DNA of 64,000 nucleotides. Source: an uncultured Phycisphaeraceae bacterium (GTDB lineage Bacteria > Planctomycetota > Phycisphaerae > Phycisphaerales > UBA1924). The position numbers and the translations under genes were made by a program. Of the stretch, positions 9,917-51,597 are shown one piece after another. The stretch spans positions 6,199 to 70,198 of the forward strand of contig CAYGLT010000001.1 of NCBI GenBank assembly GCA_964350875.1, read 5' to 3'. Under the pieces are notes generated by a model. That model did not search any database. It worked only from the letters and a program-made list of their open reading frames with translations, and was not told where the DNA came from. Every line of letters begins with the position of its first letter. The stretch's first letter is position 1.

Positions 9917-11206
9917 TCACTCCGGGCAGGGCTGTCCGAAGTTGCTGAGCACCTCGTTCAGGTCGGCGAAGTTCACAACAGCATCGCCCGTGGTGTCGCC
10001 CGGGCAGGTCGCGCCGGGGAGCCGCTCGCTCCGGTAGACGCGCACACGCTGGCCGCCGGTTGCCGCGGCCATGAAATCGGGGATCCCGTCGCCGTTGACA
10101 TCGCCCCCGCCGCTGACGAAGTTGCCGAGCGTGTTGACTTCCCCCCGACCGTTGAAGGTGTGGAGGGTTGAACCGTCGGCGCCCGAGTAGACATAGACGG
10201 CGCCCGAATTGAAGCCTTCGGGGTCGGCGCCGCTCGCGCCGACGATGAGGTCGGGGACCCCGTCGTTGTTGACATCGCCTGCTGCGCCGACGGCGACGCC
10301 CAGGAAGTCGCCCAACGCAGCGCCGTTGAAGGTGTGCAGGGTTGAGCCGTCGGCGCCCGAGTAGACACGGGCGATGCCGGAGGTCAGTTCGACGACGGTC
10401 AGGGAGTGGCCGCCGGCGATGAAGTCGGCGAAGCCGTCGCCGTTGACATCGCCCGCGCCGCTGACGGACATGCCGAACCCGCTCGCGATCTGGTCTCCGG
10501 GGATGGTGTACAGGACCGAGCCGTCGGCGCCGGAGAAGACGCGCGCGGCGCCCGGTACGGTTCCCAGGACGAGGTTCCCCGGCATCCCGACGATGAGGTC
10601 GTCGAAGCCGTCGTTGTTGACATCGCCCGCGCCGCTGACGGAGGAGCCGAAATGGTCTTGGGCCATATCGCCGTCGAAGGTGTGCAGGATCGAGCCGTCG
10701 GCGCCTGAGAAGACGCGGGCCTGGCCGGTGTTGGCGTTGGCGTCGGGCGCACCGAGAATGACATCGTCGAAGCCGTCGTTGTTGACATCGCCTGCGCCGC
10801 TGACGGACGAGCCGAGCCCTGACAAGGTGTGGAGGACCGAGCCGTCGGCGCCGGAGAAGACCTGGGCGAGGTCGACATTCGTGCCGACGATAAGGTCGGG
10901 GGCTCCGTCATTGTTGACATCGCCCGCACCGCTGACGGAGACGCCAAAGTCGTTGCCCGGAGCGGCGCCGTTGAAGGTGTGGATGGTGTCGCCATCGAAA
11001 CCGGAGATGACCCGTGCGATGCCGGTCTGGCTGTTGTGGATGTTGTTGCCGATGATGATGTCATCGAACCCGTCGCCGTTGACATCGCCCGCGTTGGCGC
11101 ACACTCTGGCGGCGTCGATGGGATACTGGGGAAGGTGCGTGTGTTGGGCATGAACGACGGCGGGGAGGGCCATCAGGAACGCGGCGGCGATGAGACGATG
11201 AGGCAT
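9917..11206 (-). CDS. secreted FG-GAP (integrin-alpha-like) seven-blade repeat protein with single dockerin-like C-terminal module
   Basis: ATG at 11206 is preceded by AGGAG. The signal peptide is MPHRLIAAAFLMALPAVVHAQ. There are seven GDVN(G/N)DGxxD(L/I)IVG Ca-binding FG-GAP loops. Confidence 0.85.
   Translation of the reverse strand: MPHRLIAAAFLMALPAVVHAQHTHLPQYPIDAARVCANAGDVNGDGFDDIIIGNNIHNSQTGIARVISGFDGDTIHTFNGAAPGNDFGVSVSGAGDVNNDGAPDLIVGTNVDLAQVFSGADGSVLHTLSGLGSSVSGAGDVNNDGFDDVILGAPDANANTGQARVFSGADGSILHTFDGDMAQDHFGSSVSGAGDVNNDGFDDLIVGMPGNLVLGTVPGAARVFSGADGSVLYTIPGDQIASGFGMSVSGAGDVNGDGFADFIAGGHSLTVVELTSGIARVYSGADGSTLHTFNGAALGDFLGVAVGAAGDVNNDGVPDLIVGASGADPEGFNSGAVYVYSGADGSTLHTFNGRGEVNTLGNFVSGGGDVNGDGIPDFMAAATGGQRVRVYRSERLPGATCPGDTTGDAVVNFADLNEVLSNFGQPCPE
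9920..10006 (-). other. single Cys-bracketed dockerin-like EF-hand module (29 codons, protein C-terminus)
   Basis: The module sequence is CPGDTTGDAVVNFADLNEVLSNFGQPCPE followed by the stop. Confidence 0.8.
10020..11110 (-). repeat. intragenic coding repeats (FG-GAP blades, about 165-175 nt period)
   Basis: The plus-strand core gttgacatcgcc(c/t)gc(g/a)ccgctgacgga recurs near 10094, 10268, 10445, 10618, 10783, 10915 and 11078. Confidence 0.7.
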
Positions 11207-11454
11207 GAAGGATGCTCCTGTGCCGCTCATGCGGCGGGATGAGAGGTGGGTTGGGGGGCGAAAGTCGCTGCCGGGCCGAGTGTACAGAATGACGGCCGAG
11301 AAACAACCAACTCACGGCAGATCGTGTTTGCAAACGCGGATGGCGGCAGGATTTTTTCTCGCCGGAAGGTGCTAGATCTACCTCGCTTGCGCCAAGTCCC
11401 CTTTGGCGAGCGGCCGCGCATCCCGCGCGGCGCTCGGAACAAGGGAGACACCAC

Positions 11455-13722
11455 ATGCATTCATTGCGCACGCTATCGCTCGGTCGGCGACCCGCCGCCG
11501 GGATCCTCGCACTCACGGTCTGCGCCTCAGGCGCGCTGGCCGCGCCCGAACTCGTCGGCCTGCTCGACGACGCCCGCGAGGCACAACACCGGCCGCTCGT
11601 CCTGCGCGGCGCCGCGGACTGCGGCGCGGTCACGCTCACCCAATCGACCAACCCCGATGTCATCGGCAACGGGAGCGCCGCATGTGTTGACGGCGCCGCC
11701 AGCGCCGAGACTTCCGCCGCACGCGTCTTCGTTGCGCCGACCACCATGACGCTCAAGTGCGTGACCTTCGGCGTGCGGTTCAACCAGGGCGGAGACTGGC
11801 CCGTCGAGGTCAACATCCTCACGACGGACAATGTGCTCGGGCCGTACCGCAACCACAACAAGATCATGGAACATGTTGTGCAGTACATCATGTCGAGCGC
11901 GAACCGTGAGTTCTATACGGTTGAGTTGCCCGATGTCACGGTGCCCGCGGGGACGCAGTTCATCGTTGAACTCACCAGCCCCAGCCGCCGACCGGCCGAC
12001 GGGGGCGACGGCGGGCAACTCGCGTTCGGCTTCAACGGGCAGGGCCAGTCGGCGCCGACCTACTTCCGCGGCCCGTTCTGCGGCGCCGAGGACTTCGTCG
12101 ATATCTCGTCGCTCGGTTTCCCGAACCTGCACCTCGTGATGTCCGTGGGCTACGAGGAGGGCGCGTCGTCGCTGCTCCTCGACGGATTCCACCACAACAT
12201 CCTCGGCGATGCGCTCTTCACCTCGGACGGCTCGAACGAACTCGTCGTCGAGGGCGACCCGATGAGCGGCCCGTTCGGTTTCTCGGTTCCGTTCGGCGAC
12301 ACCACGATGGGCGTGCAGACGCCCTCGGCCGAATGGGAAGCCGCGCCGGGGACTGCCATGACCGTAAACTTCAACCTTGCGAGCGGCGAGACCGACACAC
12401 TGTCGTTCGTCACCGCTCCGGATGAATCGCTCACGCTGGAGACCGGGTTCACATCGTCGGTAGAGCCCGTGTTCGATGTCCTCGTATTCGACGATGGAGA
12501 ATTCGTCGGTGAGTTGCCCGACCAGACCTCAGGAAGCGTCTCGGTCACGCCGATCGAACGGTTCTCTCTCTTCGGGTTCAGCATCAGTTGCAATCGACAC
12601 AAGGTGGAATTTGCCGACGGGACCACGATTACCGACTCGAGCTACGGAGCGAGTTTTCGCGGCAACGCCCTCTTCGCGACGGTAGGTGCGGGGATCATCG
12701 GTGATTCCGTTGAACTCCGCCTGCGCGATGTCGCGGGCGCCACTCCCTCGCCTCCGCTCTCGGTGGACTTCCTCGCCGACGGCATGATTTCTTTCAAGCG
12801 CCCGCGTCACGGGGCCTTCGCGCCGGGTGTTCGCTTCGGCGATGCTTCGACTTCGCCGCGCGTCGTGGACGGGAACTTCACGGTTGACATCGGCGCCTTG
12901 GTCCAGGTGACCAACGGTAACGCGCCGATCGAGATCTTCGGCGAGGCGACGATGGCGGCGGGCGGGCCGCGCATTCGTGCCAACAACCTCGGTTCCTCGG
13001 GCAAGGACGGAGTGCGCGTCTCCTTCGGGGGCGTGGACAGCGCGACGGTGGACATCGACATGGTGAACCCCGACCCGCTCACGGCGTTCATGACGCTCGA
13101 CGCCACGCAACTCGGCGGCGGCTCGGGCGGCAGCGTCACCATCGACCCGTGCATGGGCTGCCCGCCCCCGATCATCGACGACTGGTGGAATCTTCATCCC
13201 GATTTCTCGGCCGTAGGATCGGGGACTTACACCCTCCAGATCGTCCACAACGACATGGTCGTGCATGAAGCGAGTGGTTTGAGTGGGTTCGCGGGCGCCT
13301 CGTCGGGTCGTCCGTGGAAGGGCGGCAAACTCGGCGGCGCGACGCCTTGCTGGCGCATGTGCTACCCGGACGACACGCCGTTCATCATCGCGAGCACCGG
13401 CGCGCAGGTGATGATGGACGAGGTGCGCATTCTCGCGGAGAACGCCGGGCCGCTCGAGCACCTCGACTACATCGAGATCCGCGCCGCGAACATGGAGGAG
13501 TTCGGGCTGCTCAACCCGCAGACCGTGCTGCCGCCGCTGCCGACTCCGTGCTTCGGCGACACCAACGGCGACAATGTCGTGAACTTCTCCGACCTCAACG
13601 CGGTGCTGGCCTCGTTTGGTCAGTCCGGCGCAGGCCTGCCGGGCGATATCGACGGCGACGGGCAGGTGAACTTCGCCGACCTCAACGGCGTGCTGAGCAA
13701 CTTCGGGAACTCGTGCCCGTGA
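11455..13722 (+). CDS. secreted 755-aa protein of unknown function with C-terminal double dockerin-like module
   Basis: ATG at 11455 follows GGGAG. The signal peptide is MHSLRTLSLGRRPAAGILALTVCASGALAAP. The body is beta-rich with no catalytic motif I recognise, and the dockerin-like tail is clear. Confidence 0.8.
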   Translation: MHSLRTLSLGRRPAAGILALTVCASGALAAPELVGLLDDAREAQHRPLVLRGAADCGAVTLTQSTNPDVIGNGSAACVDGAASAETSAARVFVAPTTMTLKCVTFGVRFNQGGDWPVEVNILTTDNVLGPYRNHNKIMEHVVQYIMSSANREFYTVELPDVTVPAGTQFIVELTSPSRRPADGGDGGQLAFGFNGQGQSAPTYFRGPFCGAEDFVDISSLGFPNLHLVMSVGYEEGASSLLLDGFHHNILGDALFTSDGSNELVVEGDPMSGPFGFSVPFGDTTMGVQTPSAEWEAAPGTAMTVNFNLASGETDTLSFVTAPDESLTLETGFTSSVEPVFDVLVFDDGEFVGELPDQTSGSVSVTPIERFSLFGFSISCNRHKVEFADGTTITDSSYGASFRGNALFATVGAGIIGDSVELRLRDVAGATPSPPLSVDFLADGMISFKRPRHGAFAPGVRFGDASTSPRVVDGNFTVDIGALVQVTNGNAPIEIFGEATMAAGGPRIRANNLGSSGKDGVRVSFGGVDSATVDIDMVNPDPLTAFMTLDATQLGGGSGGSVTIDPCMGCPPPIIDDWWNLHPDFSAVGSGTYTLQIVHNDMVVHEASGLSGFAGASSGRPWKGGKLGGATPCWRMCYPDDTPFIIASTGAQVMMDEVRILAENAGPLEHLDYIEIRAANMEEFGLLNPQTVLPPLPTPCFGDTNGDNVVNFSDLNAVLASFGQSGAGLPGDIDGDGQVNFADLNGVLSNFGNSCP
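13549..13719 (+). other. double Cys-bracketed dockerin-like module (57 codons, protein C-terminus)
   Basis: The module sequence is CFGDTNGDNVVNFSDLNAVLASFGQSGAGLPGDIDGDGQVNFADLNGVLSNFGNSCP followed by the stop. Confidence 0.85.
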
Positions 13723-13775
13723 GTTGAACCGATCGGATCGGCGGCACCGATCGCCACACTTCGACACCTACGACG

Positions 13776-13815
13776 ACAGCGCCCCGGACGACAGCCCGGG
13801 GCGTTGTTCGTTCTG
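13776..13815 (+). terminator. hairpin/terminator after the 755-aa gene
   Basis: The stem pairs 13776-13787 with 13796-13807 (core GCGCCCCGG/CCGGGGCGT), with an 8-nt loop and a tail TCGTTCTG that is a weak U-tract. It shares the 18-mer cccggggcgttgttcgtt with the tRNA-Phe terminator. Confidence 0.5.
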
Positions 13816-13831
13816 CGTGAATGCCGAAGAC

Positions 13832-14623: not shown

Positions 14624-14693
14624 ACAGCGGGGTGAGCCGCGTGTGGGCGCCGGACTCGGCCGCGACACCTCGATGCTTGAAGCGTTGTTTCAA

Positions 14694-16343
14694 CTACGGG
14701 CAGGCAACGCCGAAGTGCGTCAGCACCTCGTTGAGGTCCATGAAGTCGACATCCCCGTCATTGTCGAAGTCGGCGGAGAGTCCCACGCCGGTGCGCCCGA
14801 ACTGTGTCAGGGCCGTGGTGAGATCGGAGAAGTTCACGAGGTTGTCGCCGTTCACATCGCCCGGGCAGTGCGAGGCGGGGACGATCGCGAGGATGGCCGC
14901 CTCGATGTCGGGCAGCGGTCCGATGTTCTGCGTCGCCGGGTTCGCGCCGTCCTGCTGGGGAAGCCCGGTGCTCATGAGCAGGGCGCGCATTTGATGAGAA
15001 GTGAGCGTCTGTCCCGGGTTGCGAACCTTATAGACAGACTGCACGAGCGCGCAGGCGCCCGCGACGACGGGCGACGCGCTCGAGGTGCCGCTGAAACTCG
15101 AGGTGTAATGCAGCGTCGGTCCCTCGGCGCTGTACGCGCCGCCGTAGCCCGTGGTCCACACGCCCTGCCCCCAGCCCTGCAGGTTCACGCGCGAGCCGTA
15201 GGTCGAGAACGAGAGCCGCGAGCGGGGCGTGGTGGTGTTGCCGAATCCGCTGCTCGCCGCGCCGGCGCCGACGATGATCGCGCCGGAGTCGTTCTCCGGA
15301 AGAAACGGCCAGTGCCCGCCGTTGCCCTGGCTGAACATCGGGTCGTCGAGGTTCTGCCCGCCGTTGCCCGCGGCCATGACGACGACCATCCCGTTGCCGA
15401 CCGCCGTGACGATCGCGTTGTACCACGGCGCGAACCACTCCACCGGGACATAGTTCCCGTTGGGGCCCGGGTACTGCTGTTCGATGAGGATGATGTCGCC
15501 CGGCTCCATCGCGTTTGTGGCAGCGACGAGCGCCGACGCGATGTTCCACGCCTGCCCGTCGTAACTCCCGGAGAAGTAGTGCTGGGCATCGGTCGCGATG
15601 CCCGTCGTGCCCCAGCCGTTGTCGCGCGAGGTGATCAGCCCGAGGACGGCCGTCCCGTGGTCGGCGCCGAATCCGGGATCGACTGGCGTCACGCCGACGA
15701 GTTGGATCGGCGGAAGATCCTGGTGGGCGGGGTCGAAGATGTACTCGATGTCCGCGATGCCGACCCCGGCGCCGCGCGTGCCGAGATCGTCCCACGCGTG
15801 GAGCGCACCGACGCCCGTGGGGGCGCGATCGAGGTACCCCTGGTTGGACTCGAAGTCTGGGGGAAGCGGGGGCGCGACTGGCTTGGGCATCGGGAGCGCA
15901 ATCTCGATGATGTCGAGCGCGTTGAGCGCGTCGATGACTTCTGCGGTGTCGGCGTCATCGTCGATGAACGCGAAGAACTCGGTGGTCATGTCGGCGAGTG
16001 AGCGGCCGAGTGAGCGCTGCGCGTCGGCTCGGAGTTGCTCGAGCCGCGCTTCGGGCAGGTCGTACACGGCGCGCCACCGAGCGATGGGGAGCGCATCGAT
16101 CGCGGCGCGTTCTCCTGCTTCAAGATCGACGACCGGGCTGGCCGCTCGCAACGAGACGGGGGAATCGTCGAGGAACTTGACATAAATCACACCTTCGGCG
16201 TGCGTGGCGCCCACACGGGTGTGCTCGGCTTTGATCCACGGCTGACGCGGCGCGAGCGGCCCGGGAGCCGCCGCGTGCAGACCGGATGCGGTCAGCAGCA
16301 GCGTCGTCACAGCAAGGGCGAGATGGTGTGCGCGTCTTTGCAT
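14694..16343 (-). CDS. secreted subtilisin-like serine protease (S8) with C-terminal double dockerin-like module
   Basis: ATG at 16343 follows GGAGGA. The signal peptide is MQRRAHHLALAVTTLLLTASGLHAAAP. Triad contexts are GVGIADIEY (Asp), HGTAVLG (His) and GTSSASP (Ser). Confidence 0.9.
   Translation of the reverse strand: MQRRAHHLALAVTTLLLTASGLHAAAPGPLAPRQPWIKAEHTRVGATHAEGVIYVKFLDDSPVSLRAASPVVDLEAGERAAIDALPIARWRAVYDLPEARLEQLRADAQRSLGRSLADMTTEFFAFIDDDADTAEVIDALNALDIIEIALPMPKPVAPPLPPDFESNQGYLDRAPTGVGALHAWDDLGTRGAGVGIADIEYIFDPAHQDLPPIQLVGVTPVDPGFGADHGTAVLGLITSRDNGWGTTGIATDAQHYFSGSYDGQAWNIASALVAATNAMEPGDIILIEQQYPGPNGNYVPVEWFAPWYNAIVTAVGNGMVVVMAAGNGGQNLDDPMFSQGNGGHWPFLPENDSGAIIVGAGAASSGFGNTTTPRSRLSFSTYGSRVNLQGWGQGVWTTGYGGAYSAEGPTLHYTSSFSGTSSASPVVAGACALVQSVYKVRNPGQTLTSHQMRALLMSTGLPQQDGANPATQNIGPLPDIEAAILAIVPASHCPGDVNGDNLVNFSDLTTALTQFGRTGVGLSADFDNDGDVDFMDLNEVLTHFGVACP
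14697..14867 (-). other. double Cys-bracketed dockerin-like module (57 codons, protein C-terminus)
   Basis: The module sequence is CPGDVNGDNLVNFSDLTTALTQFGRTGVGLSADFDNDGDVDFMDLNEVLTHFGVACP followed by the stop. Confidence 0.85.
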
Positions 16344-16612
16344 GTGTGTTTCCTCCGGAGCGCGTGCGCCCTCACGGAGGATCGGTGATGCGTCGGAGCG
16401 ATGCAAGGACAATCCGCGACGGAGCGGGGGAATTCTCGCGCGGGTCTGGGCGAGCCGATTCGCTTTGCGCAGCCGCGCTGTTCCAACCCCGGGAGGATCA
16501 CCGGGAGCGTCAGCGGAATCGCATGAACAAGGGGGGCGGCGACGCCCGATAGCGCGCGACGGGAGCGGCAGCGTCCGTTGCGCGACGGGTCGATATCATG
16601 GCGTCGACACAG

Positions 16613-16698
16613 GGCCCTGTGGCGGAATCGGCAGACGCAGCGGACTTAAAATCCGCAGCCCGGCAACGGGCGTGAGGGTTCGACCCCCTCCGGGGCCA
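16613..16698 (+). tRNA. tRNA-Leu (anticodon TAA)
   Basis: An 86-nt class II tRNA. The acceptor is GGCCCTG/CGGGGCC (one G-U), the D region TGGCGGAATCGGCAGACGC, and the anticodon stem GCGGA/TCCGC with loop CTTAAAA. There is a long variable arm, a T-arm GAGGG-TTCGACC-CCCTC and discriminator A. Confidence 0.9.
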
Positions 16699-16712
16699 TT
16701 GAGGGCCGTTTT

Positions 16713-17120: not shown

Positions 17121-17157
17121 GGAGGTGTGGCTCGGGGTGTCGTGAAAGAGGTGGAGG

Positions 17158-18826: not shown

Positions 18827-18884
18827 ATATCCCTTCAGAGAGGGATGAAACCGGCGCTCCCGGGTGTTCCGTATATCTTGGTGT

Positions 18885-36359: not shown

Positions 36360-36427
36360 GCCCGGTTACCCTGAATCCGAACATTCTGGACACACCCGCC
36401 CGTTTGGGTGTGTGGTACGCTGCCCGG

Positions 36428-40278: not shown

Positions 40279-40447
40279 GAGTGGGCCCGTTGGGGCGCGA
40301 AGAGGATAGCCCAACCCCCGGCGCCGGTCGAAAGTGGCGATCACTCGCCCTGAATCCGCTCGATCCGGTGGTTTTACTTGTGCCGGGTCTCTCCGGGAGG
40401 TATGTTCCGGGCAGTCCTGCTCGTCGGGGCGTCCACAGGAGTCTGTT

Positions 40448-42076: not shown

Positions 42077-42085
42077 TCCGACCGA

Positions 42086-45025
42086 TCACCGCGGCTGCAC
42101 GGGCTGGGATGTGCCGCATCCCGGGCCGTAGATCATCGCGTTGTGCAGCAGGCGCGTCGTGCCGAGCGTCGTCCCGCGGAAGGTCGGCGGCGACGCGAAA
42201 AGGATCACCTGCCCGTTGCCGACAGAGTCGCGCGTCAGGTACGCGGTGTTCATCAATCGCTGCGCGGCCTCGGGCCAGAGTAACCCGCTCATGCGCAGGC
42301 GTGCTTCAGTCCCGATCGGCGCGGGCGCGAACCCACGGCGGGCGGTCTTCGCCTCACCTTCTGATGATTCGTCGGAGTTCGTGGCGGCCGAAGTGTCAGT
42401 CTCGGGCGCCTCGACATACACACCGAAACGGACCGGCGCCTGCGTGGGCCGCTTGGCCATCAGCGTCGTTCCCCCCGTGTAGAGCACCGGGAGGACTTCG
42501 CCCAGCCCGACCGTCAGCCAGTTCCGATCATCGACGCGTGCGGCGAGGATCGCGCCCTGAGGCATGAACACCTCCTGGAAGTCGTCGCGCCGTTTCAGTT
42601 CGTCCTCGCTCGGCAGGTCCTCGATGCTCGCCCACGGGTACTCGATCTCGCCCACGGTGTTCGTGTAGACGGTCGTGGCTTCCGCCGTCGCGGTGTACCC
42701 CTCCGCTTCGCGAAGGACCTCCATCGCGTGCGATTCGAGATCACCCAGCGCGTCGGTCACACTCCGCGCCTTGGCGAGTTTCGCCGCTTCGTCCGCCGCA
42801 CCGCTCGCGCTGCCGCCGATCGCGATCAGCGTCCCGCCCTGCTCGACCCAGCGACGCAGGTCCTCCGCGTACCGCTTGATCAGCGAGGGGCTCGCGTCGG
42901 GGAAGACAAGGGTGTTGTACTCGCGCAGATCGGTGTATCCGAGATCGGCGGCGTCGAGGTACGACGCGCGCACGCCCAGCACCTGATCGAGCGTGTGCCA
43001 GACCGAGCCGTAGTCGGTGGGGCTCACCTGATTCCGGCCGACCACCGCGATCCGCGGGCGGCGCAGGAGGTGCAGGTGCCCGCCGCCCAGATCCGGCGCG
43101 TCGCCCGGTCCGAAGCCCGTGTCGATGGCGTACGCGTTGATCCCCAGCGTGCGCGAGACCTCATCGATCGAATCGACCAGCCCGGTGTGCGATTCGTTGT
43201 CGATGCGGAAGGCGATCACCGTGCCGCGCTCGAACGAGCGGCCACCCAGCGAGGTGTCCTTGTCGAGCATTCGCACCTGTACGCCGCGCTCCATGAGTTG
43301 CGCGGCCGCGGCAACGGAACGGTCGTCGGCGCCGTTGAACGCCCAGCCCACCTGAGGATCACGATCTTCAACACCGGCAGAGCGCGGTGATGCCGTGACT
43401 TCCTCGGCGTTTCGCGGGAGCGTCATCGAGAGTTCCGCTGTGTCCAGCCCGTAGAGCATGGGGATGTTCCACGCCGTGATGTCGTACAGGCGCGACTCGC
43501 CGAAGCGCAGCAACTCGCGCCGCTCCTCGGTCAGGAATTCGTCGGGCATCGGCGTGTCGAGTTCGAGGAGGGCCGCCGCCAGCCGCGCTTCCGGCTGGGT
43601 GGAAGGGATGAGCAGCGTCCCGGCGTCGAACGCCTTCGACTCGAAGGTGTCGCCCAGCCAGTCCTGTCCGTCTGCCTCGAACTCGTCCGTCGCGCGGTAC
43701 ACCTTCACGCCCTGCAGGTTCATGAGGTCGATGAATCGCTGGAGCCGCGCCTCGTTCTTCCCCGCGCTGACCGCGAACACGCGGCCGCTGTACTCACCAT
43801 CGCGTGCGATGTTCTCGCGGCGCTCGGCGACGAACTCGGACAGCATCGCGTCCTTGTTGGCGCGCAGGGTCTGCAGATTCGTCAGGCCGCTGAGCGCCTG
43901 CTTGTGCACGGACTCCTTGTAGGTCTCCACGCGTCCCTCGGGACGCTGGATGCCCGCGTCGGCGATGCGCGCCTGCTCGTACAGGATCGCGACGGCGCTC
44001 TTGAGCGACGCCCAGGCGTCCGTGTAACCGGGGTACCAACCCTCGTTCCATTCGCCCGTGTAATACCGCCAGCCGTTGCGATCAAACGCGTCCGCTTGAT
44101 CCTCGGCGAACTCCTTGTTCCAGTGCGCGCGGCGCTCGGGGAAGTGCGGATTGATCGGGGCGCGGCTGGGCGAGAAGAGATAGGTGTCCAGCGGCCACAT
44201 CTCGTGTGCATCCACGAACAGCAGGGGGCGCCACTCGCTCACGGCCTCAAGACGCCCGCGCGTCTCGGGGTGGACGCCGAAGATCGAATCTCGATTGAGA
44301 TCGAACAGGTAGTGGTTGCCGCGCCCCGCGGGCCAGTCTCCCGTGTGCACCAGCGACTGGTAGTCGGTGTTCGGGACATTGCCGCGGTTCTCCGCGACCA
44401 TCTTCAGGAAGCGGTCGCGGCCGTCGGGGTTCATCATCGGATCGATGATGATCACCAGTTCGTCGAGCAGCGCCTGTGTTTGCGGCGAGTTGTCGGCGAT
44501 GAGGTGGTGCGCGAGCGCGAGCGCGCCGTCAGCGCCCGATGTCTCGTCGCCGTGGATCGAATGCCCGAGCCACGCGACAGCGGGCAACCCCTGCATGATG
44601 CGCCGCGCCTCGGCGTCCGAAAGCCCGTCGGGATCGGCGAGCGTCGCGTAACTGGCCTTGATGTCCTCGAGCACACTCTGGCGATCGGGCCGCGTGATGA
44701 CGAGGTGGAACATCGACCGGCCCTCGTAGGTCTTGGCGTGCTCGACGAGGGTGGCGCGGTCGCTGATGTCCGCCCAGGTCCGAAAGCACTTCTCGATCTC
44801 GGCGTGCGTGGCGGCTCGGTCGCCCGCGTCGAAACCGATGAGTTGCTTGGTCGTCGGGATCGTTCCGCTGTGCTGTGCGCCGGGGAAGAACGGTTGCTGG
44901 TAGGTGAGTTCGGGTTGGGGCGAAGCGGGGGTTGGGGTCGGCGCCGCCTGCGCCATCGCGATTGTCGAGCCCGCGACCGACAGGATCGCGGCGAGGGTCA
45001 GGGCACGGCGGACGCGGTCGGGCAT
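42086..45025 (-). CDS. large secreted M14 zinc carboxypeptidase family protein
   Basis: ATG at 45025 gives the signal peptide MPDRVRRALTLAAILSVAGSTIAMAQA. The Zn-binding context HSIHGDETSG and IIDPMMNPDGRDRF are present, with long C-terminal accessory domains. Confidence 0.82.
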   Translation of the reverse strand: MPDRVRRALTLAAILSVAGSTIAMAQAAPTPTPASPQPELTYQQPFFPGAQHSGTIPTTKQLIGFDAGDRAATHAEIEKCFRTWADISDRATLVEHAKTYEGRSMFHLVITRPDRQSVLEDIKASYATLADPDGLSDAEARRIMQGLPAVAWLGHSIHGDETSGADGALALAHHLIADNSPQTQALLDELVIIIDPMMNPDGRDRFLKMVAENRGNVPNTDYQSLVHTGDWPAGRGNHYLFDLNRDSIFGVHPETRGRLEAVSEWRPLLFVDAHEMWPLDTYLFSPSRAPINPHFPERRAHWNKEFAEDQADAFDRNGWRYYTGEWNEGWYPGYTDAWASLKSAVAILYEQARIADAGIQRPEGRVETYKESVHKQALSGLTNLQTLRANKDAMLSEFVAERRENIARDGEYSGRVFAVSAGKNEARLQRFIDLMNLQGVKVYRATDEFEADGQDWLGDTFESKAFDAGTLLIPSTQPEARLAAALLELDTPMPDEFLTEERRELLRFGESRLYDITAWNIPMLYGLDTAELSMTLPRNAEEVTASPRSAGVEDRDPQVGWAFNGADDRSVAAAAQLMERGVQVRMLDKDTSLGGRSFERGTVIAFRIDNESHTGLVDSIDEVSRTLGINAYAIDTGFGPGDAPDLGGGHLHLLRRPRIAVVGRNQVSPTDYGSVWHTLDQVLGVRASYLDAADLGYTDLREYNTLVFPDASPSLIKRYAEDLRRWVEQGGTLIAIGGSASGAADEAAKLAKARSVTDALGDLESHAMEVLREAEGYTATAEATTVYTNTVGEIEYPWASIEDLPSEDELKRRDDFQEVFMPQGAILAARVDDRNWLTVGLGEVLPVLYTGGTTLMAKRPTQAPVRFGVYVEAPETDTSAATNSDESSEGEAKTARRGFAPAPIGTEARLRMSGLLWPEAAQRLMNTAYLTRDSVGNGQVILFASPPTFRGTTLGTTRLLHNAMIYGPGCGTSQPVQPR

Positions 45026-45222
45026 CGATCGACTCCGAAAGAGGGGGCGGCGGCTGGAGTTCAGCGTGTATGAGTGTCCCGGGAACAGGGAAACGAAGCA
45101 AGCCGCCGGCGGTGGTCGCGGCGGGAAGGGTTCGCCGAAGTGATGAGGAGTCGGTACCCTATGGATCAGCGGCGCCGCGCGAGGGCGCAGTTCCATCCCA
45201 GACCAGAAACAGGTGTTCCACG

Positions 45223-46953
45223 ATGAGCGAGCGTCAACCGCCGCCCCCGAACGGTGACCGCAGCCCTGAGATGCGGCAGCAATCCGAGCCCATGCCGGGC
45301 GATCAGCAGCTCGAAGGACCCGCGATGCGGACCCTCGCCGGGGGGCCGGGCGCGCCGCTGAAGGAACGCCAGCCGGGCGGCCTCTTCCTGCTCTTCATCG
45401 TCGAGATGTGGGAACGCTTCTCGTACTACGGCATGCGCGCCCTGCTCGTGCTGTTCATGACAGCGCAGATCATCAAGGGCGAGGATGGCATGCTGGGCGA
45501 AGGGCTCGGCTGGACCCGCGAACAGGCGGGCGTTCTCATCGCCTGGTACACCAGCATGGTCTACCTGACCGGCATTTTCGGCGGGTATCTCGCGGACAAA
45601 CTCATCGGCACACACCGATCGATGCTGACGGGCGGCGTCATCATCTCAATCGGCCACATCGTCCTCGCGGGCATGGGCATTACCGAGCCCGGCTCGGCCG
45701 CGACCGTCGCGATCTTCATCAGCGGCCTCGCGCTGATCGTCATCGGAACGGGCTTCTTCAAGCCCTGCGTCAGCGTCATGGTCGGCCAGTTGTACCGAAC
45801 GGGCGACAGGCGACGCGACGCGGGCTTCACGATCTTCTACATGGGCATCAATGTCGGCGCCCTGCTCGGTTCGCTGGGCTGCGGCTATCTCGGCGAGAAG
45901 GTGGGCTGGCACTGGGGCTTCGGCGCCGCAGCCGTCGGCATGATCGCGGGCATGATCGTGTACATGATCGGCAGACCCAAACTGCTCAAGGGCATCGGGC
46001 TGCCGCCCGCCAAGGAAGACCGCCCGCCCGCGAGCAAGACGCTCAGCCGACTGGCGATGATGATCGGCGCGACGGCGCTGCTCATCGGCATCGGGCAGAT
46101 CCTCAGCAGCCCCGGCGCGGTCATCCCGGGCGTGAACATCACGCTCCCGATGTTCCCGGAATGGGCCGCGCAGGCGTACGGCGTCACCATCCTGCTGGCC
46201 GTCATCGCGCTGATCATCTTCTTCATCGCGTCGCAGAAGCCGGGCGACAAGGGCCCGGTCGCCGCGATCTTCATCATTTCGACCTTCGTGATCTTCTTCT
46301 GGTTCGCGTTCGAGCAGGCGGTGACCTCGCTCAACCTCTTCGCGCTCCACCGCACCGAGCGCGTGCTGCCGGGCATGGAGAATCAGTTCCCCGCGACCTG
46401 GTACCAGTCGGTCAACTCGTCGTTCATCCTGATCTTTGCTCCGGTCCTCGCGATCCTGTGGGCGTGGATGGGCCGCCGACGCATCGAGCCGAGCACGCCC
46501 GTCAAGATGGGCTTCGGCCTCATCCTGCTCGGCCTCGGCTTCGTGGTGATGGTCTTCGTCGCGCAGAAGACCGATGGCGGGAAGTTTCTCGAAGAGGGCT
46601 CCAACCTCATCAAGAAGGTCGGGCCGTACTGGCTGATCCTCGTCTACTTCCTCCACACCATCGGCGAACTCTGCCTTTCCCCGATCGGGCTCTCGCTCGT
46701 GACCAAACTGGCGCCCGTCAAGTGGGTCTCGCTGCTCATGGGCGTGTGGTTCCTGGCCCCGGCGATCGCCCAGTTCATCGGCGGCATGACCTTCAGCAAG
46801 ATCGAACTCATCGAGAAGGGCGAACTCTTCAAGCCCATCATCGGAGGCCAGGCGGACTTCTTCCTGATCTTCGTCATCACCTCGTGCGGCGCCGGTCTGG
46901 TGATGCTCGCCATCAGCCCGATCCTCAAGAAACTGATGCACGGGAAGGCGTGA
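45223..46953 (+). CDS. proton-dependent oligopeptide transporter (POT/PTR2 family)
   Basis: The ExxERFxYYG motif is present (VEMWERFSYYGMRALLVLFM), as is the second PTR2 motif FGGYLADKLIG. The protein is multi-pass. Confidence 0.92.
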   Translation: MSERQPPPPNGDRSPEMRQQSEPMPGDQQLEGPAMRTLAGGPGAPLKERQPGGLFLLFIVEMWERFSYYGMRALLVLFMTAQIIKGEDGMLGEGLGWTREQAGVLIAWYTSMVYLTGIFGGYLADKLIGTHRSMLTGGVIISIGHIVLAGMGITEPGSAATVAIFISGLALIVIGTGFFKPCVSVMVGQLYRTGDRRRDAGFTIFYMGINVGALLGSLGCGYLGEKVGWHWGFGAAAVGMIAGMIVYMIGRPKLLKGIGLPPAKEDRPPASKTLSRLAMMIGATALLIGIGQILSSPGAVIPGVNITLPMFPEWAAQAYGVTILLAVIALIIFFIASQKPGDKGPVAAIFIISTFVIFFWFAFEQAVTSLNLFALHRTERVLPGMENQFPATWYQSVNSSFILIFAPVLAILWAWMGRRRIEPSTPVKMGFGLILLGLGFVVMVFVAQKTDGGKFLEEGSNLIKKVGPYWLILVYFLHTIGELCLSPIGLSLVTKLAPVKWVSLLMGVWFLAPAIAQFIGGMTFSKIELIEKGELFKPIIGGQADFFLIFVITSCGAGLVMLAISPILKKLMHGKA

Positions 46954-46970
46954 TCGTCTCTCCATACTGA

Positions 46971-47010
46971 AAAAGACAGCGGCGGGTCTCACGCGAGGCC
47001 CGCCGCTTTT
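46971..47010. terminator. bidirectional rho-independent terminator between convergent POT and S9 genes
   Basis: The element reads AAAAGAC-AGCGGCGGG(tctcacgcgagg)CCCGCCGCT-TTTTC. The stem pairs 46978-46986 with 46999-47007, with an A-run upstream and a T-run downstream. Confidence 0.75.
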
Positions 47011-47036
47011 CATGTGCAGTTCCTGTTCGTCGAAAC

Positions 47037-49349
47037 TTAGTCCGCTCGTTCCGGACCGCCCAGGTGCTCCTCGAAGTAGTCCACGACCCTCGTCCAGAGC
47101 GGGATCACGACCTCGGGATCGCGCACCATGTGCGTCTGGTTCGAGAGCGGGAGGAAGTCGAAGTCCTTGCCCGCCGCGAACAGCGCGTTGGCCATCTTGA
47201 GCCCGTGCACGAAGTAGACATTGTCGTCGGCGGTGCCGTGGATGATGAGCAGCGGTCGTTCGAGCCGGTCGGCGTAGGTCAGCACATTGCTGACTCGGTA
47301 CGACTCCGGGTCGGTCTCGGGATGCCCCGCGTACCGCTCGGTGTAGTGCGTGTCGTAATCGATCCAATCGGCGACCGGCGCACCGGCCACTCCCACGGTG
47401 AACACATCCGGGCGCTGCATGACGGCCATCGCGCTGAAGTAGCCGCCGTACGACCACCCGTAGATGCCCACGCGCGAGAGGTCCATCTCCCGGTAGCGCT
47501 CGCCGAGCGTCACCAGGCCCTCGGCCTGGTCTTCGAGGGGCTTGGTGATGAAGTCCTTGTGCACGGCGCGCTGCCATTCCGCGCTGCGCCGGGGCGTGCC
47601 GCGACCGTCCATCGACACGACGATGAACCCGTGGTCCGCGATCCACTGCTGGAACGCGTAGCGATCACGCACACGCTCGACCATGACCGAGGTCGGCCCG
47701 CCGTAGACATTGACGATGACCGGGTACTCGAGCGCGGGATCGAAGTCGCGCGGCCGGACGATGACCGCATCGATGTCGCGCCGCGGGCCGGTTCGCGTGA
47801 ATTCGAGCGAAGGAGAGAAGTTCGGTTCAATCGCAACGCTCCGCATCTCGCCGATGGGATCGCCCAGCGAGCCGGGCGCGGCGTCGCGGAGGTTGTAGAG
47901 CGTGGCGGTCCTCTCGCCGACCAGCGGACGCGACGAGAGCAACGCGGTCGATCCGTCCTTCGCGACCGAGAACGAGTGTGCGCCGGGGGCCGCCGTGAGT
48001 TTCACGGGCGGGCCGTCTTCGGGGTAGAGCGGCACGCGATACACATGTGTCTGCGTCGGATCGTCGGACGCCGACACGAATGCGGCGCCGCGGCCGCCAA
48101 ACGCGTCTTCGTCGATGTACCCGAGCGAGCGGAAGCCCAGCGAGGGCTCGACGACGGTGTGCTTGAGACGACCGTTGCGGTCGCGCATCTCGAGCGCCCA
48201 GCCGTCCTCCTTCTCGGTCGCCCAGAGGAACGCGGCGCCGTCGTTGATCCACTTCGGCGTCGAATCATCGAGGTTGATCCACGCGCGGTCGCGCTCGGTG
48301 AGCAGTTCGGTCGCGTATCCGCTCGCCGGGTCGATCGAGAGGTACTTCTGCTCGGTCTGCGCGCGGTTCTGCACGAGGATCGTCAGAGGAGACTCGCTTT
48401 GCCACTCGACCTTGGCGAGATAGGGGTACGCGTCGCGGTCCCAGCGGACTTCGACGGGAGCGCCGACACTTCGCGCACCATTGAGCGGCTGCACGAACAG
48501 CCGCACCTCGGCGTTCTTTGTTCCCGCGCGAGGGTAAGGCCAGGTCGTCGCCGGTTTCGCCGGGTTTGCGGGATCGGCGATTGTGAACGATTCGAGCCCG
48601 TCCACATCGGTGCGTTGGTAGACGACGGCGGAGTGATCCGGTGCGATCCAATAGCCGTGACGGCGTCCCATCTCTTCCTGCGCGACGAATTCCGCCTCGC
48701 CGTAGGACACGGTGTCCGGTTCGCCCGATCGGTTGGTGATGCGGTGCTGCTCGCCGCTCGCCGTGTCGATGATGTACAGATCGCCGTCGCGTACGACGCC
48801 CACGAGTGACGCGTCCTTGGTCATCCGCGCATCGAGGGGCGATCCGCCTTCGCTGGGCAGTTCGCGCCGTTCGCCCGACTTGCGGTCGACGAGGAACAGC
48901 CGACCCGAAAGCGGAACGAGCAAGGTGGAGCCGTCTTCGGACAGCGAGTACGACACGATCCCGCGCGCGGAAAGCCGCATGCGTTCGCGCCGCGCGAGTT
49001 CCTCGACGGTCAGTTCCTCCTCCGCGTCACCCAGCACCTGCGCGGCGGTGAGGAGTGTCCGCTCGCGACCGTTCGCGTCGACCACGAACAGGTTGCGCAC
49101 CGAAGACCGCGGCTCTGAGCGCAGAAAGATCGCGCCCTCGCCATTCGGGAGTAGTGTGACGGAGGTCGGTCGGCCGTTGGAGTAGCGCGAGGACTCGGCG
49201 TAGTCGCGCAGGAAATCAGGATCGGGGATGGGCGCCTGCGCGGTCGCGCGGGTTCGCTCCTGCGCGAAAGCATCGGCATGAACGGCCGCGCAGGTGAATC
49301 CCGCGGCGAGCACGAGGGAGCGGAGAAGTGAAGTCGGGCGTTGGCGCAT
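47037..49349 (-). CDS. secreted S9 family dipeptidyl peptidase IV / prolyl oligopeptidase
   Basis: A signal peptide and an N-terminal beta-propeller region are present. The catalytic Ser context is GIYGWSYGGYFS, followed by GTADDNV and a terminal His region. Confidence 0.9.
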   Translation of the reverse strand: MRQRPTSLLRSLVLAAGFTCAAVHADAFAQERTRATAQAPIPDPDFLRDYAESSRYSNGRPTSVTLLPNGEGAIFLRSEPRSSVRNLFVVDANGRERTLLTAAQVLGDAEEELTVEELARRERMRLSARGIVSYSLSEDGSTLLVPLSGRLFLVDRKSGERRELPSEGGSPLDARMTKDASLVGVVRDGDLYIIDTASGEQHRITNRSGEPDTVSYGEAEFVAQEEMGRRHGYWIAPDHSAVVYQRTDVDGLESFTIADPANPAKPATTWPYPRAGTKNAEVRLFVQPLNGARSVGAPVEVRWDRDAYPYLAKVEWQSESPLTILVQNRAQTEQKYLSIDPASGYATELLTERDRAWINLDDSTPKWINDGAAFLWATEKEDGWALEMRDRNGRLKHTVVEPSLGFRSLGYIDEDAFGGRGAAFVSASDDPTQTHVYRVPLYPEDGPPVKLTAAPGAHSFSVAKDGSTALLSSRPLVGERTATLYNLRDAAPGSLGDPIGEMRSVAIEPNFSPSLEFTRTGPRRDIDAVIVRPRDFDPALEYPVIVNVYGGPTSVMVERVRDRYAFQQWIADHGFIVVSMDGRGTPRRSAEWQRAVHKDFITKPLEDQAEGLVTLGERYREMDLSRVGIYGWSYGGYFSAMAVMQRPDVFTVGVAGAPVADWIDYDTHYTERYAGHPETDPESYRVSNVLTYADRLERPLLIIHGTADDNVYFVHGLKMANALFAAGKDFDFLPLSNQTHMVRDPEVVIPLWTRVVDYFEEHLGGPERAD

Positions 49350-49413
49350 GAAAAAGTCTCCGTCGAATGGTTCGACGGAGACTGTATATCAAGCCGGGGT
49401 GTTGCGGTTGAAC

Positions 49414-51597
49414 TTAGTTGCAGTCGAGGCCGAAGTTGGACAGGACCGTGTTGAGGTCGCTGAAGTCGACCGTGCCGTTGCCGTCGACATCGCCGGGGTT
49501 GCCCGCTCCGGTCTGGCCGAACGCGGCGAGGACCGTGTTGAGGTCGGTGAAGTTGACGACATTGTCGCCGTTGGTGTCGCCGAGGCAGATCTCGACGATC
49601 GCTTCGCCGACTTCGCCAGTGACGGCGACGGCGAAGCCCTGCTCGCCGACATTCACCGACGGGGCTTCGACGCGGACGGTCCAGACGCCGGTCTCGGGGG
49701 AAGCGACGATCACCTGCTCGACGGAGTTGATGCCGTCGGTGGTTCCGGAGTTCGCGATCGAGAGGCCGCCGCTCATGGCGTTGCCGCGGTAGAGCACGCC
49801 CGAGGGCGACTCGACCACGAGGTCAACATTGTTGACCACGGCGTTGAACGCGCCGGAGTTGGCGGGGGGGTCGGTGAACGCCATGGTGGCGCGGAAGTTC
49901 TCGCCCGAGCCGGTGACCTCGACCTCGAACTCGTACGAGCCGGAGGTGGCGAGCGCGTCATCGGAGGTGTTGCGCACATCGCGCACGACGATCGAGCGGG
50001 CGTCGCCCGGGAAGTGCAGCGCGTCGTCGGCGACGAGGCGGCCCCAACCCTCGAGGTTGCTCGGGTAGCCGGAGACGCCGGTCATGTCGCGCGTCGAGTT
50101 CAGGATGACGGCGCGGAGCAGCGCGGCCGACGGGGTGACCGAGTCGTTCGCGCCGGGCTCGCCCGTGGGGTAGTACCCGTCGGTGAAGTACTGGCGGATC
50201 AGCGCGGCTGCGCCGGAGATCGCCGGGGTCGCCATCGAGGTGCCCGACGAAGAACGCAGCGAGCACGAGGTGCCGTTGCGCGCGGACTGGATGCCGCATC
50301 CGGGCGCGTAGACCTCGGGCTTGCGGCGGCCGTCCTGCGTCGGGCCGACGCCGGCGGTGCAGTGGTTGTTGATGCCGGTGGGGAAACTGCGATCACTGCC
50401 GCCGACGGCCAGCACACTTTTCGCGTTCTCAGGCGTGTAGAGCGAGCTGCGGTTGGTGACGGCGAAGACGACGAGCGAGTCCTCGTAATCGTACGAGAAC
50501 TCATCGATGGCGCGTGTCCACGCGTTGTAATCAGTGCGGAAGTCGGCCCCCCACGAGTTGGTGTGGACCCGGGCGCCGGCGTTGTGAGCCGTGAGCAACT
50601 GGCTGTAGAACTGCGTTCCGTTGAGGAACGAAGGCGTGGGGGCGTAGGCGATCTTGGCGTCGTACGCGACGCCGTGGTAATCGTCGTCAGGGCCGGTGCC
50701 GATGCGGTTGCCCGCGATCGTGCCGCTGACGTGGGTGCCGTGAGATACGGCGCCGAACGAACCGACATAGTTGATGATCTTGCGGTGCCCGGGGCCGACG
50801 GGCATGGTGTCGTCGACGAACATGCAGTGGTTGATGTCGAGTTGGCTGTCCTGCACGCCGACGATCTGGCCTTCGCCGGTGAGGCCGTGGTCCCAGAGGG
50901 GCTGGCTGTTGCTCTCGCCGCTTTGCACGGCGTCGTGGCTGACGCTGTTGCGCTCGGTGGCTTCGAGGGCGGGCTCGACAAACTGCACCGAGGGGATCAT
51001 CGAGATCTGTGCCAGCGACTCCGCCGGAAGCGTCGCGGTGATCAGCAATTCGCTGCCGTTGCGCCCGGCATTGTGGATCTGCACATTGTCGATCTGGTTG
51101 AGGGCGACCTTGGCGTCGGCTTCGGCCTCGTCGCCAAAGAAGGAGATGTTCACATCGACGGCGCCGGCGAGTGCGAGCAACGAGGGCTCGACCTTCCATG
51201 CGGGCTGGTAGGGGGCTGACCAGCGCACGAACGCGAGGTTCCGGGCAGCGTCGGCGTTGGCGCCGGCGGGGAGCGAGAGCACGAACGCGTTCGGGGGCAG
51301 GTAGCCGACCACGCTGACGCCGGTGGCGTTGATCGCGGCGCGGCGTTGGGGGGTCATCGGGCCGTCGAGTTGGACGACGAGACGGTCGTTCGGACGCAGG
51401 TCGATCAGGGCGGCAGGGACGCCGATGTCGCCGGCGTCGTCGATCTGGAGGGCGTTGATCGGACGGCTGGTGTCGATCGCGCCAGCGCGGAGCTGGAGGG
51501 GGGCCGCGAGGGCTCCCGAGGCGAGGGCCAGGCCGGCGGCGGCGATGAGAAGAGACGCGCGGGTCGACCGCGCCCGAGGAGCCGGGTCAGAATGCAT
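49414..51597 (-). CDS. secreted subtilisin-like serine protease (S8) with C-terminal double dockerin-like module
   Basis: ATG at 51597 with a signal peptide. Catalytic contexts are IVGVQDSQLD (Asp), HGTHVSGTIAG (His) and GTSMATPAISGAAAL (Ser). Confidence 0.9.
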   Translation of the reverse strand: MHSDPAPRARSTRASLLIAAAGLALASGALAAPLQLRAGAIDTSRPINALQIDDAGDIGVPAALIDLRPNDRLVVQLDGPMTPQRRAAINATGVSVVGYLPPNAFVLSLPAGANADAARNLAFVRWSAPYQPAWKVEPSLLALAGAVDVNISFFGDEAEADAKVALNQIDNVQIHNAGRNGSELLITATLPAESLAQISMIPSVQFVEPALEATERNSVSHDAVQSGESNSQPLWDHGLTGEGQIVGVQDSQLDINHCMFVDDTMPVGPGHRKIINYVGSFGAVSHGTHVSGTIAGNRIGTGPDDDYHGVAYDAKIAYAPTPSFLNGTQFYSQLLTAHNAGARVHTNSWGADFRTDYNAWTRAIDEFSYDYEDSLVVFAVTNRSSLYTPENAKSVLAVGGSDRSFPTGINNHCTAGVGPTQDGRRKPEVYAPGCGIQSARNGTSCSLRSSSGTSMATPAISGAAALIRQYFTDGYYPTGEPGANDSVTPSAALLRAVILNSTRDMTGVSGYPSNLEGWGRLVADDALHFPGDARSIVVRDVRNTSDDALATSGSYEFEVEVTGSGENFRATMAFTDPPANSGAFNAVVNNVDLVVESPSGVLYRGNAMSGGLSIANSGTTDGINSVEQVIVASPETGVWTVRVEAPSVNVGEQGFAVAVTGEVGEAIVEICLGDTNGDNVVNFTDLNTVLAAFGQTGAGNPGDVDGNGTVDFSDLNTVLSNFGLDCN
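49417..49587 (-). other. double Cys-bracketed dockerin-like module (57 codons, protein C-terminus)
   Basis: The module sequence is CLGDTNGDNVVNFTDLNTVLAAFGQTGAGNPGDVDGNGTVDFSDLNTVLSNFGLDCN followed by the stop. Confidence 0.85.

Follow-up and report, generated by a model that had tools for sequence, protein, structure and literature searches.

For the class Phycisphaerae, Andrei et al. (2019, ISME J, PMC6461901) proposed the “planctosome”, a cohesin-dockerin system for the display of peptidases in the Nemodlikiaceae. In this proposal, peptidases of the M12B and M14 families bear dockerins and are held by two partners, a scaffold anchored via a lamin tail and an adaptor with cohesins. Dockerins also serve to attach the S8 protease dDoc_0689 of Clostridium thermocellum and S8 and C25 peptidases of the Cloacimonadota, either at the cell surface or in complexes that resemble cellulosomes. 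Here we describe a C-terminal module of this kind in a stretch of 64,000 nucleotides from an uncultured Phycisphaeraceae bacterium (assembly GCA_964350875.1, contig CAYGLT010000001.1, positions 6,199 to 70,198 of the forward strand), which is referred to as the window. Five putatively secreted proteins encoded in the window end in the same module, which is bracketed by two cysteines and almost certainly has the fold of a GC-type dockerin.

The module shares with the planctosome its occurrence in the class Phycisphaerae, the large number of secreted proteins tagged with dockerins (dozens in each genome) and M12B and M14 peptidases as cargo. However, the planctosome model is based on cohesin calls at the InterProScan level in a single metagenome-assembled genome (MAG) and comprises neither a Cys bracket nor a form with a single F-hand (PMC6461901). 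Moreover, the GC content differs, being 66-69% in the lineage of the window and 57-60% in the Nemodlikiaceae. The dockerin-bearing peptidases of C. thermocellum and the Cloacimonadota belong to systems in which cohesin scaffoldins can be identified, and no Cys bracket is present in their dockerins, in contrast to the module described here.

Compared with type I dockerins (PF00404), such as the Cel48 dockerin of Bacteroides cellulosolvens (2Y3N_B), the module shows the same duplicated F-hand with D-x-N-x-D-G-x-x-x-x-x-D loops, the same predicted fold, the same C-terminal position on secreted enzymes and the same internal two-fold symmetry. It is shorter, however, and the aromatic or electrostatic clasp is replaced by a Cys pair. 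Its cargo consists of peptidases, propellers and other proteins that are not cellulases, and its host is an aerobic Gram-negative planctomycete of high GC content.

Copies of the module and their carriers in the window

The initial annotation had listed five modules with sequences and coordinates, all of which were reproduced exactly by translation of the five open reading frames (ORFs), each module being followed by a stop codon. Four of the modules are double forms of 57 aa and one is a single form of 29 aa. The stop codon stands 1-2 residues past the last Cys in all five proteins. A hidden Markov model (HMM) of the half-repeat, which was built from the nine half-repeats of the window and run on all six frames of its whole length, detected these nine units and no others, all of them located C-terminally in the same five ORFs. 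The carriers and their modules are as follows.

9917..11230, minus strand: FG-GAP (integrin-alpha-like) beta-propeller carrier with signal peptide; Pfam FG-GAP at 7.9e-39 in 7 stretches
9920..10006, minus strand: single-F-hand module of 29 codons, CPGDTTGDAVVNFADLNEVLSNFGQPCPE, with one predicted Ca2+ loop and helix between two Cys; half-repeat HMM 46.0 bits
11455..13722, plus strand: orphan all-beta carrier of 755 aa with signal peptide; no Pfam domain matched
13549..13719, plus strand: double module of the orphan protein, 57 aa; found by translation and half-repeat HMM, NF041540 17.7 bits in the whole-protein scan
14694..16412, minus strand: S8 subtilase a, carrier; Peptidase_S8 at 8.4e-15
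14697..14867, minus strand: double module of S8 subtilase a, 57 aa; half-repeat HMM, NF041540 22.3 bits for the isolated tail
40448..42076, plus strand: PAD_porph/agmatine-deiminase-like carrier with Ig-like domain and signal peptide; PAD_porph at 3.8e-32, Dockerin_1 25.5 bits
41903..42073, plus strand: double module of the PAD-like protein, 57 aa; NF041540 32.0 bits from Cys to Cys, copy chosen for the structure model
49414..51597, minus strand: S8 subtilase b, carrier, 727 aa, with signal peptide; Peptidase_S8 at 1.9e-34
49417..49587, minus strand: double module of S8 subtilase b, 57 aa; translation and half-repeat HMM

The Pfam assignments, namely FG-GAP, two Peptidase_S8, PAD_porph and one protein without any domain, agree with the previous description of the cargo as secreted proteins other than glycosidases. 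As judged by eye, the N-termini of all five carriers resemble Sec signal peptides, with a basic segment followed by a hydrophobic segment and AxA. The true start of the FG-GAP carrier is likely located eight codons downstream of the ORF start (MPHRLIAA), its orthologue P0177 having 429 aa, and that of S8 subtilase a probably lies near position 16346 (MQRRAHHLALAV...), which results in a protein of about 550 aa; the syntenic orthologue has 547 aa. The orthologue of the PAD-like carrier in locus L001 shows 87% nucleotide identity.

The three other double modules share 56-79% of their residues with the copy of the PAD-like protein, although their cargo is unrelated. The mean column identity is 79%, and among the window copies the module of S8 subtilase a diverges most. 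At the nucleotide level the copies are 66-82% identical and about 30% of the conserved codons differ synonymously. Thus, they appear to be old paralogues under selection at the protein level, while recent duplication or gene conversion is ruled out by the same figures as the cause of their similarity.

Fold and calcium loops

In an alignment of 114 copies, both halves of the module show conservation of the predicted Ca2+ ligands at loop positions 1, 3, 5, 9 and 12: D at position 1 (frequency 0.99), N or D at position 3, D at position 5 (0.89-0.94), N or D at position 9 (0.95) and D at position 12 (0.99). No variation of these residues is seen among the four double copies of the window, while the single form has one F-hand segment only. 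Both halves furthermore carry the near-invariant helix signature D-L-N...V-L..F-G, resulting in an almost perfect internal two-fold symmetry.

In the AlphaFold model of the tail of the PAD-like protein two loop-helix units are predicted, and the predicted local distance difference test score (pLDDT) exceeds 90 over the module. A Foldseek search of the PDB with this model returned exclusively dockerins at ranks 1-32. The best match between the predicted structure and an experimental one was the B. cellulosolvens dockerin 2Y3N_B, with TM-scores of 0.71/0.78, a root-mean-square deviation of 1.4 Å and 37% identity. The same dockerin was found by phmmer against the PDB from the sequence alone (E=1e-5). 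With Pfam, Dockerin_1 reached the threshold in one of the five window proteins, the PAD-like carrier (25.5 bits, cutoff 22.9). Circularity is avoided in that Pfam Dockerin_1, NCBIfam dockerin_GC, phmmer against the PDB and the profile search with the double copies are all independent of the half-repeat HMM.

A canonical calmodulin-like EF-hand pair was considered as well and rejected, since the Pfam EF-hand_1 matches in the window remained below threshold (16.8-18.6 bits, cutoff 25.4), the model lacks the entering helices and calmodulins rank below dockerins. The module is therefore predicted to form a compact type-I-like dockerin of about 55-57 aa with two F-hand units, each consisting of a Ca2+ loop followed by a helix, and it probably binds calcium. 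The dockerin-like nature with Ca2+-binding F-hand loops, as originally recognised from the motif, thus agrees with the ligand conservation, the AlphaFold and Foldseek results, NF041540 and the Dockerin_1 match of the PAD-like protein.

The cysteine pair as a presumed disulfide clasp

Counted from the conserved Gly that precedes loop 1, the first Cys has position -2 (C-P-G-D), and the second one is located three residues past the final Phe-Gly (F-G-x-x-C). Among 110 double forms from related genomes, 97 contain both Cys, seven contain neither and six contain one. The two residues are thus kept or lost together (Fisher p=4e-7), as expected for the disulfide pair that had been suggested initially. 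Copies without either Cys make up about 6% of the double modules (L022, L028, L048, L058, L073 and L076; e.g. ...LPGDTNGD...NFGTTNG). In P0029, a protein of 600 aa, three modules follow each other in tandem at the C-terminus and each has its own Cys pair, which indicates that the unit from Cys to Cys is a self-contained domain.

Judging from this sequence pattern the two Cys presumably form a disulfide bond that ties the N- and C-termini of the module together as a covalent version of the dockerin clasp. Such a bond is supported by the co-variation of the Cys residues, by the separate pair of each tandem module in P0029 and by the export of the proteins. In known dockerins the termini are locked by a non-covalent intramolecular clasp between a residue at position -3 to -1 of the conserved Gly and a C-terminal residue (Slutzki et al. 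2013, PMC3821032). This clasp supports the Ca2+-dependent folding, and its loss decreases the melting temperature by up to 20 °C and weakens the binding of cohesin about tenfold (PMC3821032). The N-terminal Cys of the window module at position -2 falls within the same range. However, the clasps described in PMC3821032 are the non-covalent pairs Trp-Pro, Trp-Tyr, Lys-Tyr and Arg-Glu, and cysteines or disulfides are never mentioned there; likewise, no natural disulfide clasp of a dockerin was found in the literature searched. A compact dockerin of 55 aa with a natural covalent clasp could serve as a robust and oxidation-stable tag for designer enzyme assemblies.

Relation to the curated family NF041540

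The NCBIfam model NF041540 (dockerin_GC, “GC-type dockerin domain-anchored protein”) aligns with the module end to end, model positions 1-67 extending from the first to the last Cys. At a cutoff of 29 bits, the isolated tail of the PAD-like protein scores 32.0 bits and that of S8 subtilase a 22.3 bits, whereas tails of the shorter subtype from other Phycisphaerales genomes reach 35.6-42.9 bits. The single form obtains 14.0 bits and aligns with the second half of the model only (positions 42-67). The Cys-bracketed terminal module consequently belongs to the NF041540 family, with the window subtype (V-N-F-x-D-L-N, 57 aa) being marginal for the model. The domain is not new as a kind. The previous proposal of a novel system cannot be upheld, since the family is already curated, the abundance of dockerins in the Phycisphaerae and the planctosome have been published (PMC6461901) and S8 peptidases with dockerins are known elsewhere. 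New with respect to the searchable literature are the Cys bracket as a probable covalent clasp, the subtypes and their length variation, the conserved variant with a single F-hand and the under-calling of the module in annotations.

Due to the marginal position of the window subtype most copies are missed by routine annotation. In whole-protein scans NF041540 gave 26.6 bits for the PAD-like protein and 17.7 bits for the orphan protein, and no match at E<=0.01 for S8 subtilase b and the FG-GAP carrier. Of 78 complete carriers from related genomes, 44 match the model at E<=1e-3 and eight reach about its cutoff. Dockerin_1 of Pfam matches 17 of the 78 at E<=1e-3, its threshold being met by about a quarter of the copies. 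On the syntenic ENA contigs L080-L082 (ERZ25043444, ERZ25043436 and ERZ25043434) the three tagged carriers are all without a dockerin in the precomputed Pfam annotation, which illustrates that standard pipelines are blind to the tag. The tag is thus seen by Pfam in about a quarter of the carriers, by NCBIfam at the whole-protein cutoff in about a tenth and in the syntenic contigs not at all.

Distribution, position and length

A scan of 185,579 species-representative genomes detected 160 relatives. The best 80 of these 160 all originate from Phycisphaerales/Phycisphaeraceae genomes or from unclassified MAGs. Synteny was found between the window and the Phycisphaeraceae MAG CBDUPB01, with 80-87% nucleotide identity and the tagged orthologues in place, and this MAG contains at least 33 tagged ORFs within the retrieved loci alone. 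The module is a hallmark of the Phycisphaerales. A profile of the four double copies searched against 1.84 billion representative proteins produced 20,942 matches at E<=1e-3 and 1,207 at E<=1e-10, from which the best 150 were retrieved and combined with metagenome fragments obtained earlier. A word-indexed homology search with the 57-aa module detected 21 short metagenome fragments in which the Cys bracket was seen again, and a search of the plasmid collection with the module gave no match.

The terminal position noted in the window applies to the family as a whole. It was found for 113 of the 115 tagged ORFs in the loci, of which 110 have double forms, and for 112 of the 113 single-copy proteins in the protein library (105 are both terminal and Cys-bracketed). 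The fixed distance of exactly 57 codons from the bracketing Cys to the stop, in contrast, is true for the four double copies of the window but not across the family, where it varies between 53 and 61 aa in the loci and between 56 and 61 aa in the single-copy proteins, with a mode of 57 in both. A sister subtype (V-D-L-A-D-L-N) with a shorter linker has 54-55 aa from Cys to stop. The tails of this shorter-linker subtype (L044, L064, L066, L068, L070 and L071) often contain an extra Cys 2-6 residues before the bracket Cys (CTADPCPGD, CPCPGD), which the window subtype does not have.

Two further architectures were observed. In L046:118-1233 (plus strand, MAG CAYPGJ01), the only tagged ORF of the loci with the module near the N-terminus, the dockerin is followed by 264 aa that are rich in beta-structure and for which no Pfam or PDB sequence match was found, the layout as a whole being adaptor-like. 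Eight secreted proteins of about 370 aa (P0022, P0023, P0025, P0026, P0032, P0052, P0073 and P0087) consist solely of about seven tandem dockerin-like F-hand pairs after the signal peptide; they could function as Ca2+ buffers or as scaffolds.

The single-F-hand form

A single Cys-bracketed F-hand of 27-29 aa, often ending in ...NFGxPCPE, is also present on the 95%-identical orthologue P0177 of the FG-GAP carrier and on many FG-GAP propellers of 43-56% identity. Carriers from many metagenomes include P0177, P0178, P0193, P0210, P0268 and P0276. Judging from these homologues, the single form is a conserved variant on FG-GAP propellers and no one-off deletion. EF-hand-type motifs usually require a second hand for their stability. 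If two single forms were linked by disulfides, the resulting pseudo-linker G-Q-P-C~C-P-G would comprise seven residues, as does the linker of the shorter double subtype. The pairing requirement of EF-type hands and the length of the pseudo-linker make it plausible that such a dimer rebuilds the two-F-hand fold, and one may speculate that the single form is completed by disulfide-linked dimerisation.

Cargo

Pfam searches of the 78 complete carriers revealed FG-GAP and other propellers, M10, M12B (reprolysin) and M14 peptidases and trypsin-like peptidases. Further cargo comprises PPC and PKD domains, endonuclease/exonuclease/phosphatase and phytase-like proteins, FGE-sulfatase, PAD, GDSL lipase and metallophosphoesterase domains. 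Many of the 78 have no recognised Pfam domain. NCBIfam additionally detected the choice-of-anchor domains D and Q on carriers, along with relatives of proteins associated with MYXO-CTERM, PEP-CTERM/T5SS and the type IX secretion system (T9SS). The orphan carrier of the window belongs to a family with nine homologues, all of which have kept the module. Its AlphaFold model (mean pLDDT 62) contains multiple beta-sandwiches with weak lectin/jelly-roll matches in Foldseek.

The tails of the 120 closest FG-GAP homologues are diverse. About 16 are single forms of the GC type, about ten are Cys-bracketed doubles of several types, nine are dockerin-like doubles without Cys and two are PEP-CTERM-like, the latter (P0202 and P0230) consisting of VPEP, a transmembrane segment and RRK. 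This variety suggests that the tag fills the slot which is occupied by covalent or membrane anchors in other lineages.

Possible function of the module

It appears fairly probable that the module docks its cargo onto a partner. According to this docking model, dozens of proteins exported by Sec receive it at their C-terminus in the Phycisphaerales, among them peptidases, FG-GAP propellers, PAD-like enzymes, nucleases/phosphatases and uncharacterised beta-proteins. Following Sec export of the cargo, the Cys pair would be oxidised and Ca2+ would be loaded, whereby the tail would fold as a clasped dockerin. Its conserved symmetrical helix surface, with F and T/A/S at positions 10-11 and L and A/S at positions 17-18 as putative docking residues, would then attach the enzyme non-covalently to a common surface or scaffold partner, which may be a divergent cohesin, as in the planctosome idea, or another receptor. 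Degradative exoenzymes would thereby be kept close to the cell and its peptide transporters.

Several lines of evidence are consistent with a docking partner that is shared by all carriers. The copies are alike in spite of their unrelated cargo, and positions 10-11 and 17-18 are among the invariant residues and match, as mapped by homology, the cohesin-contact positions of clostridial dockerins, the module having F-[TAS] and L-[AS] where type I dockerins have S-T and K-R. The near-symmetrical halves resemble those of dockerins with a dual binding mode. An anchor-like role is suggested by the C-terminal position of nearly all copies, by carriers with choice-of-anchor D/Q domains or related to MYXO-CTERM, PEP-CTERM and T9SS cargo, and by the varied tails of the FG-GAP homologues. 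The genomic context points in the same direction, since tagged S8 and PAD genes surround genes for M14, DPP-IV and POT proteins in the window and M12B and M14 carriers occur as in the planctosome.

The almost strictly C-terminal position would also fit a sorting or secretion signal, as considered in the initial annotation, whose tail is subsequently cleaved or covalently attached in the style of the T9SS C-terminal domain, PEP-CTERM/exosortase, LPXTG/sortase or MYXO-CTERM. This explanation could account for cargo that overlaps both with choice-of-anchor domains and with proteins related to those sorted by T9SS, PEP-CTERM and MYXO-CTERM, for the exchange of the tail for PEP-CTERM-like tails in FG-GAP homologues and for the word “anchored” in the NCBIfam family name. 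However, it seems improbable given that a two-helix Ca2+ dockerin fold is confidently predicted, which is neither a transmembrane helix with a basic tail nor the beta-sandwich of about 80 aa of the T9SS C-terminal domain. The module sequences, which end in C-x or C-P-E, contain neither a hydrophobic stretch nor a cleavage motif, and all carriers already possess Sec signal peptides. A signal of this kind would furthermore not tolerate the tandem triplet of P0029 or the near-N-terminal copy of L046, and no dedicated processing enzyme was detected nearby among the window proteins scanned.

We regard it as rather unlikely that the module is an accessory domain without a partner, i.e. a Ca2+-dependent, disulfide-locked stabilising cap or a Ca2+-mediated binder of an envelope glycan or acidic polymer. 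A generic stabiliser requires neither near-identical surface residues over unrelated cargo and genomes nor a placement at the extreme C-terminus behind a flexible linker on propellers, subtilases and PAD enzymes alike, even though the scarcity or absence of cohesins and the sub-threshold Pfam EF-hand matches would be compatible with such a role. Papers citing Peer et al. (2009) also report that many non-cellulosome genomes contain dockerins without cohesins. Homotypic assembly, in which modules would pair via their F-hands, possibly with disulfide exchange, in order to oligomerise enzymes, must be weighed against the fact that known dockerins bind cohesins and not one another and that the double forms are already complete in themselves. 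Nevertheless, the conservation of the single form on FG-GAP propellers is in favour of it in view of the pairing requirement of EF-hand-type motifs, as is the agreement of the seven-residue pseudo-linker with the linker of the shorter double subtype, the single form dimerising via two intermolecular disulfides in this scheme. Secreted proteins of about 370 aa with about seven tandem dockerin-like units exist as candidate scaffolds. Overall, we judge homotypic assembly to be improbable.

The question of the partner

A number of observations weigh against the docking model as outlined above. The presumed disulfide is apparently not essential, as indicated by the copies lacking both Cys, and no paper or experiment behind NF041540 or the GC-type dockerin was found in the literature searched. 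In agreement with the initial annotation, no match to the cohesin family PF00963 was detected by Pfam in about 45 window proteins scanned. None was found among the 78 carriers either, where for the 39 larger ones the search covers the best 25 of 34 families, among which a cohesin match weaker than about 1e-5 would not appear, nor in ten library proteins with non-terminal modules. According to the CAZy table of PMC6461901, the large Nemodlikiaceae MAGs encode 25-42 dockerins and 0-1 dbCAN cohesins, the MAG behind the planctosome model having none.

No hidden cohesin was recognised in the orphan carrier by AlphaFold and Foldseek, the confidence of that model being low to moderate. The Nemodlikiaceae MAGs as a whole contain 0-2 cohesins each (PMC6461901). 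Experimental follow-up of the planctosome hypothesis was not found in the searchable literature, where the term is used by six papers only. Cohesins do occur in the Phycisphaerae, as indicated by Limihaloglobus, which we take to be a member of this class and which encodes a single Coh2-Doc1-Coh1 protein alongside 13 dockerin proteins.

A cohesin seems a possible but rather doubtful partner of the module. A further scenario, which we consider unlikely, is that GC-type dockerins operate without any cohesin. At least 30 tags per genome would then dock on a non-cohesin surface receptor or on one another, and the single form of the FG-GAP propellers would represent a “half-dockerin” completed by disulfide-linked dimerisation. 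If true, this would constitute a new redox- and Ca2+-dependent logic of surface display or assembly in a Gram-negative phylum.

The Phycisphaerales are abundant polymer degraders in lakes, oceans and sediments, and about 1% of their genes appear to be tagged. Recognition of the tag defines a displayed exo-proteome of proteases, PAD-like enzymes, propellers, nucleases and many uncharacterised proteins, and it sharpens the question of which receptor serves 25-40 dockerins in genomes with 0-1 recognisable cohesins. The current understanding is not overturned by these results. Rather, the world of non-cellulosomal dockerins is extended and the planctosome idea gains concrete, testable components.

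Gene neighbourhood in the window

The genes between the tagged PAD-like protein and S8 subtilase b carry no module according to the Pfam scan.

42086..49349, unstranded: untagged genes between the tagged PAD and S8 subtilase b genes
42086-45196, minus strand: M14 carboxypeptidase, 1036 aa, untagged
44932-46953, plus strand: POT-family peptide transporter, untagged
47037-49349, minus strand: S9/DPP-IV peptidase, untagged

Positions 40310-51597 thus form a protein-scavenging neighbourhood in which the tagged PAD-like protein and S8 subtilase b are grouped around the M14 peptidase, the POT transporter and the S9/DPP-IV peptidase. An M28 peptidase and amidohydrolases are encoded elsewhere in the window. 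An operon or a genomic island was rejected as a general explanation, since the tagged genes, the stretch from PAD to S8 subtilase b apart, are dispersed among housekeeping genes (ClpX, trigger factor, LpxK, NadC, FeoB).

A third S8 subtilase, which had been described as a sixth protein with a degenerate loop, was also inspected.

18864..21707, plus strand: third S8 subtilase with poly-Pro linker and a tail with one lone EF-hand-like loop, placed outside the module family; the half-repeat HMM gives 1.1 bits (E=22)

Its membership is dismissed on the basis of this score and of the Pfam and NCBIfam scans, in which neither Dockerin_1 nor dockerin_GC matched. The linker contains at least 18 consecutive prolines, and the tail behind it has about 90 aa.

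At positions 36404-40124 (plus strand) a sulfatase-maturing enzyme of the FGE type, a HAD hydrolase and a sulfatase are encoded consecutively, and in related genomes FGE-sulfatase domains are also among the cargo that carries the module. The contigs L080-L082 show a conserved gene order of S8, orphan, FG-GAP, an extracytoplasmic function (ECF) sigma factor, ..., an ABC transporter, a tetratricopeptide repeat (TPR) protein and valyl-tRNA synthetase (ValRS).

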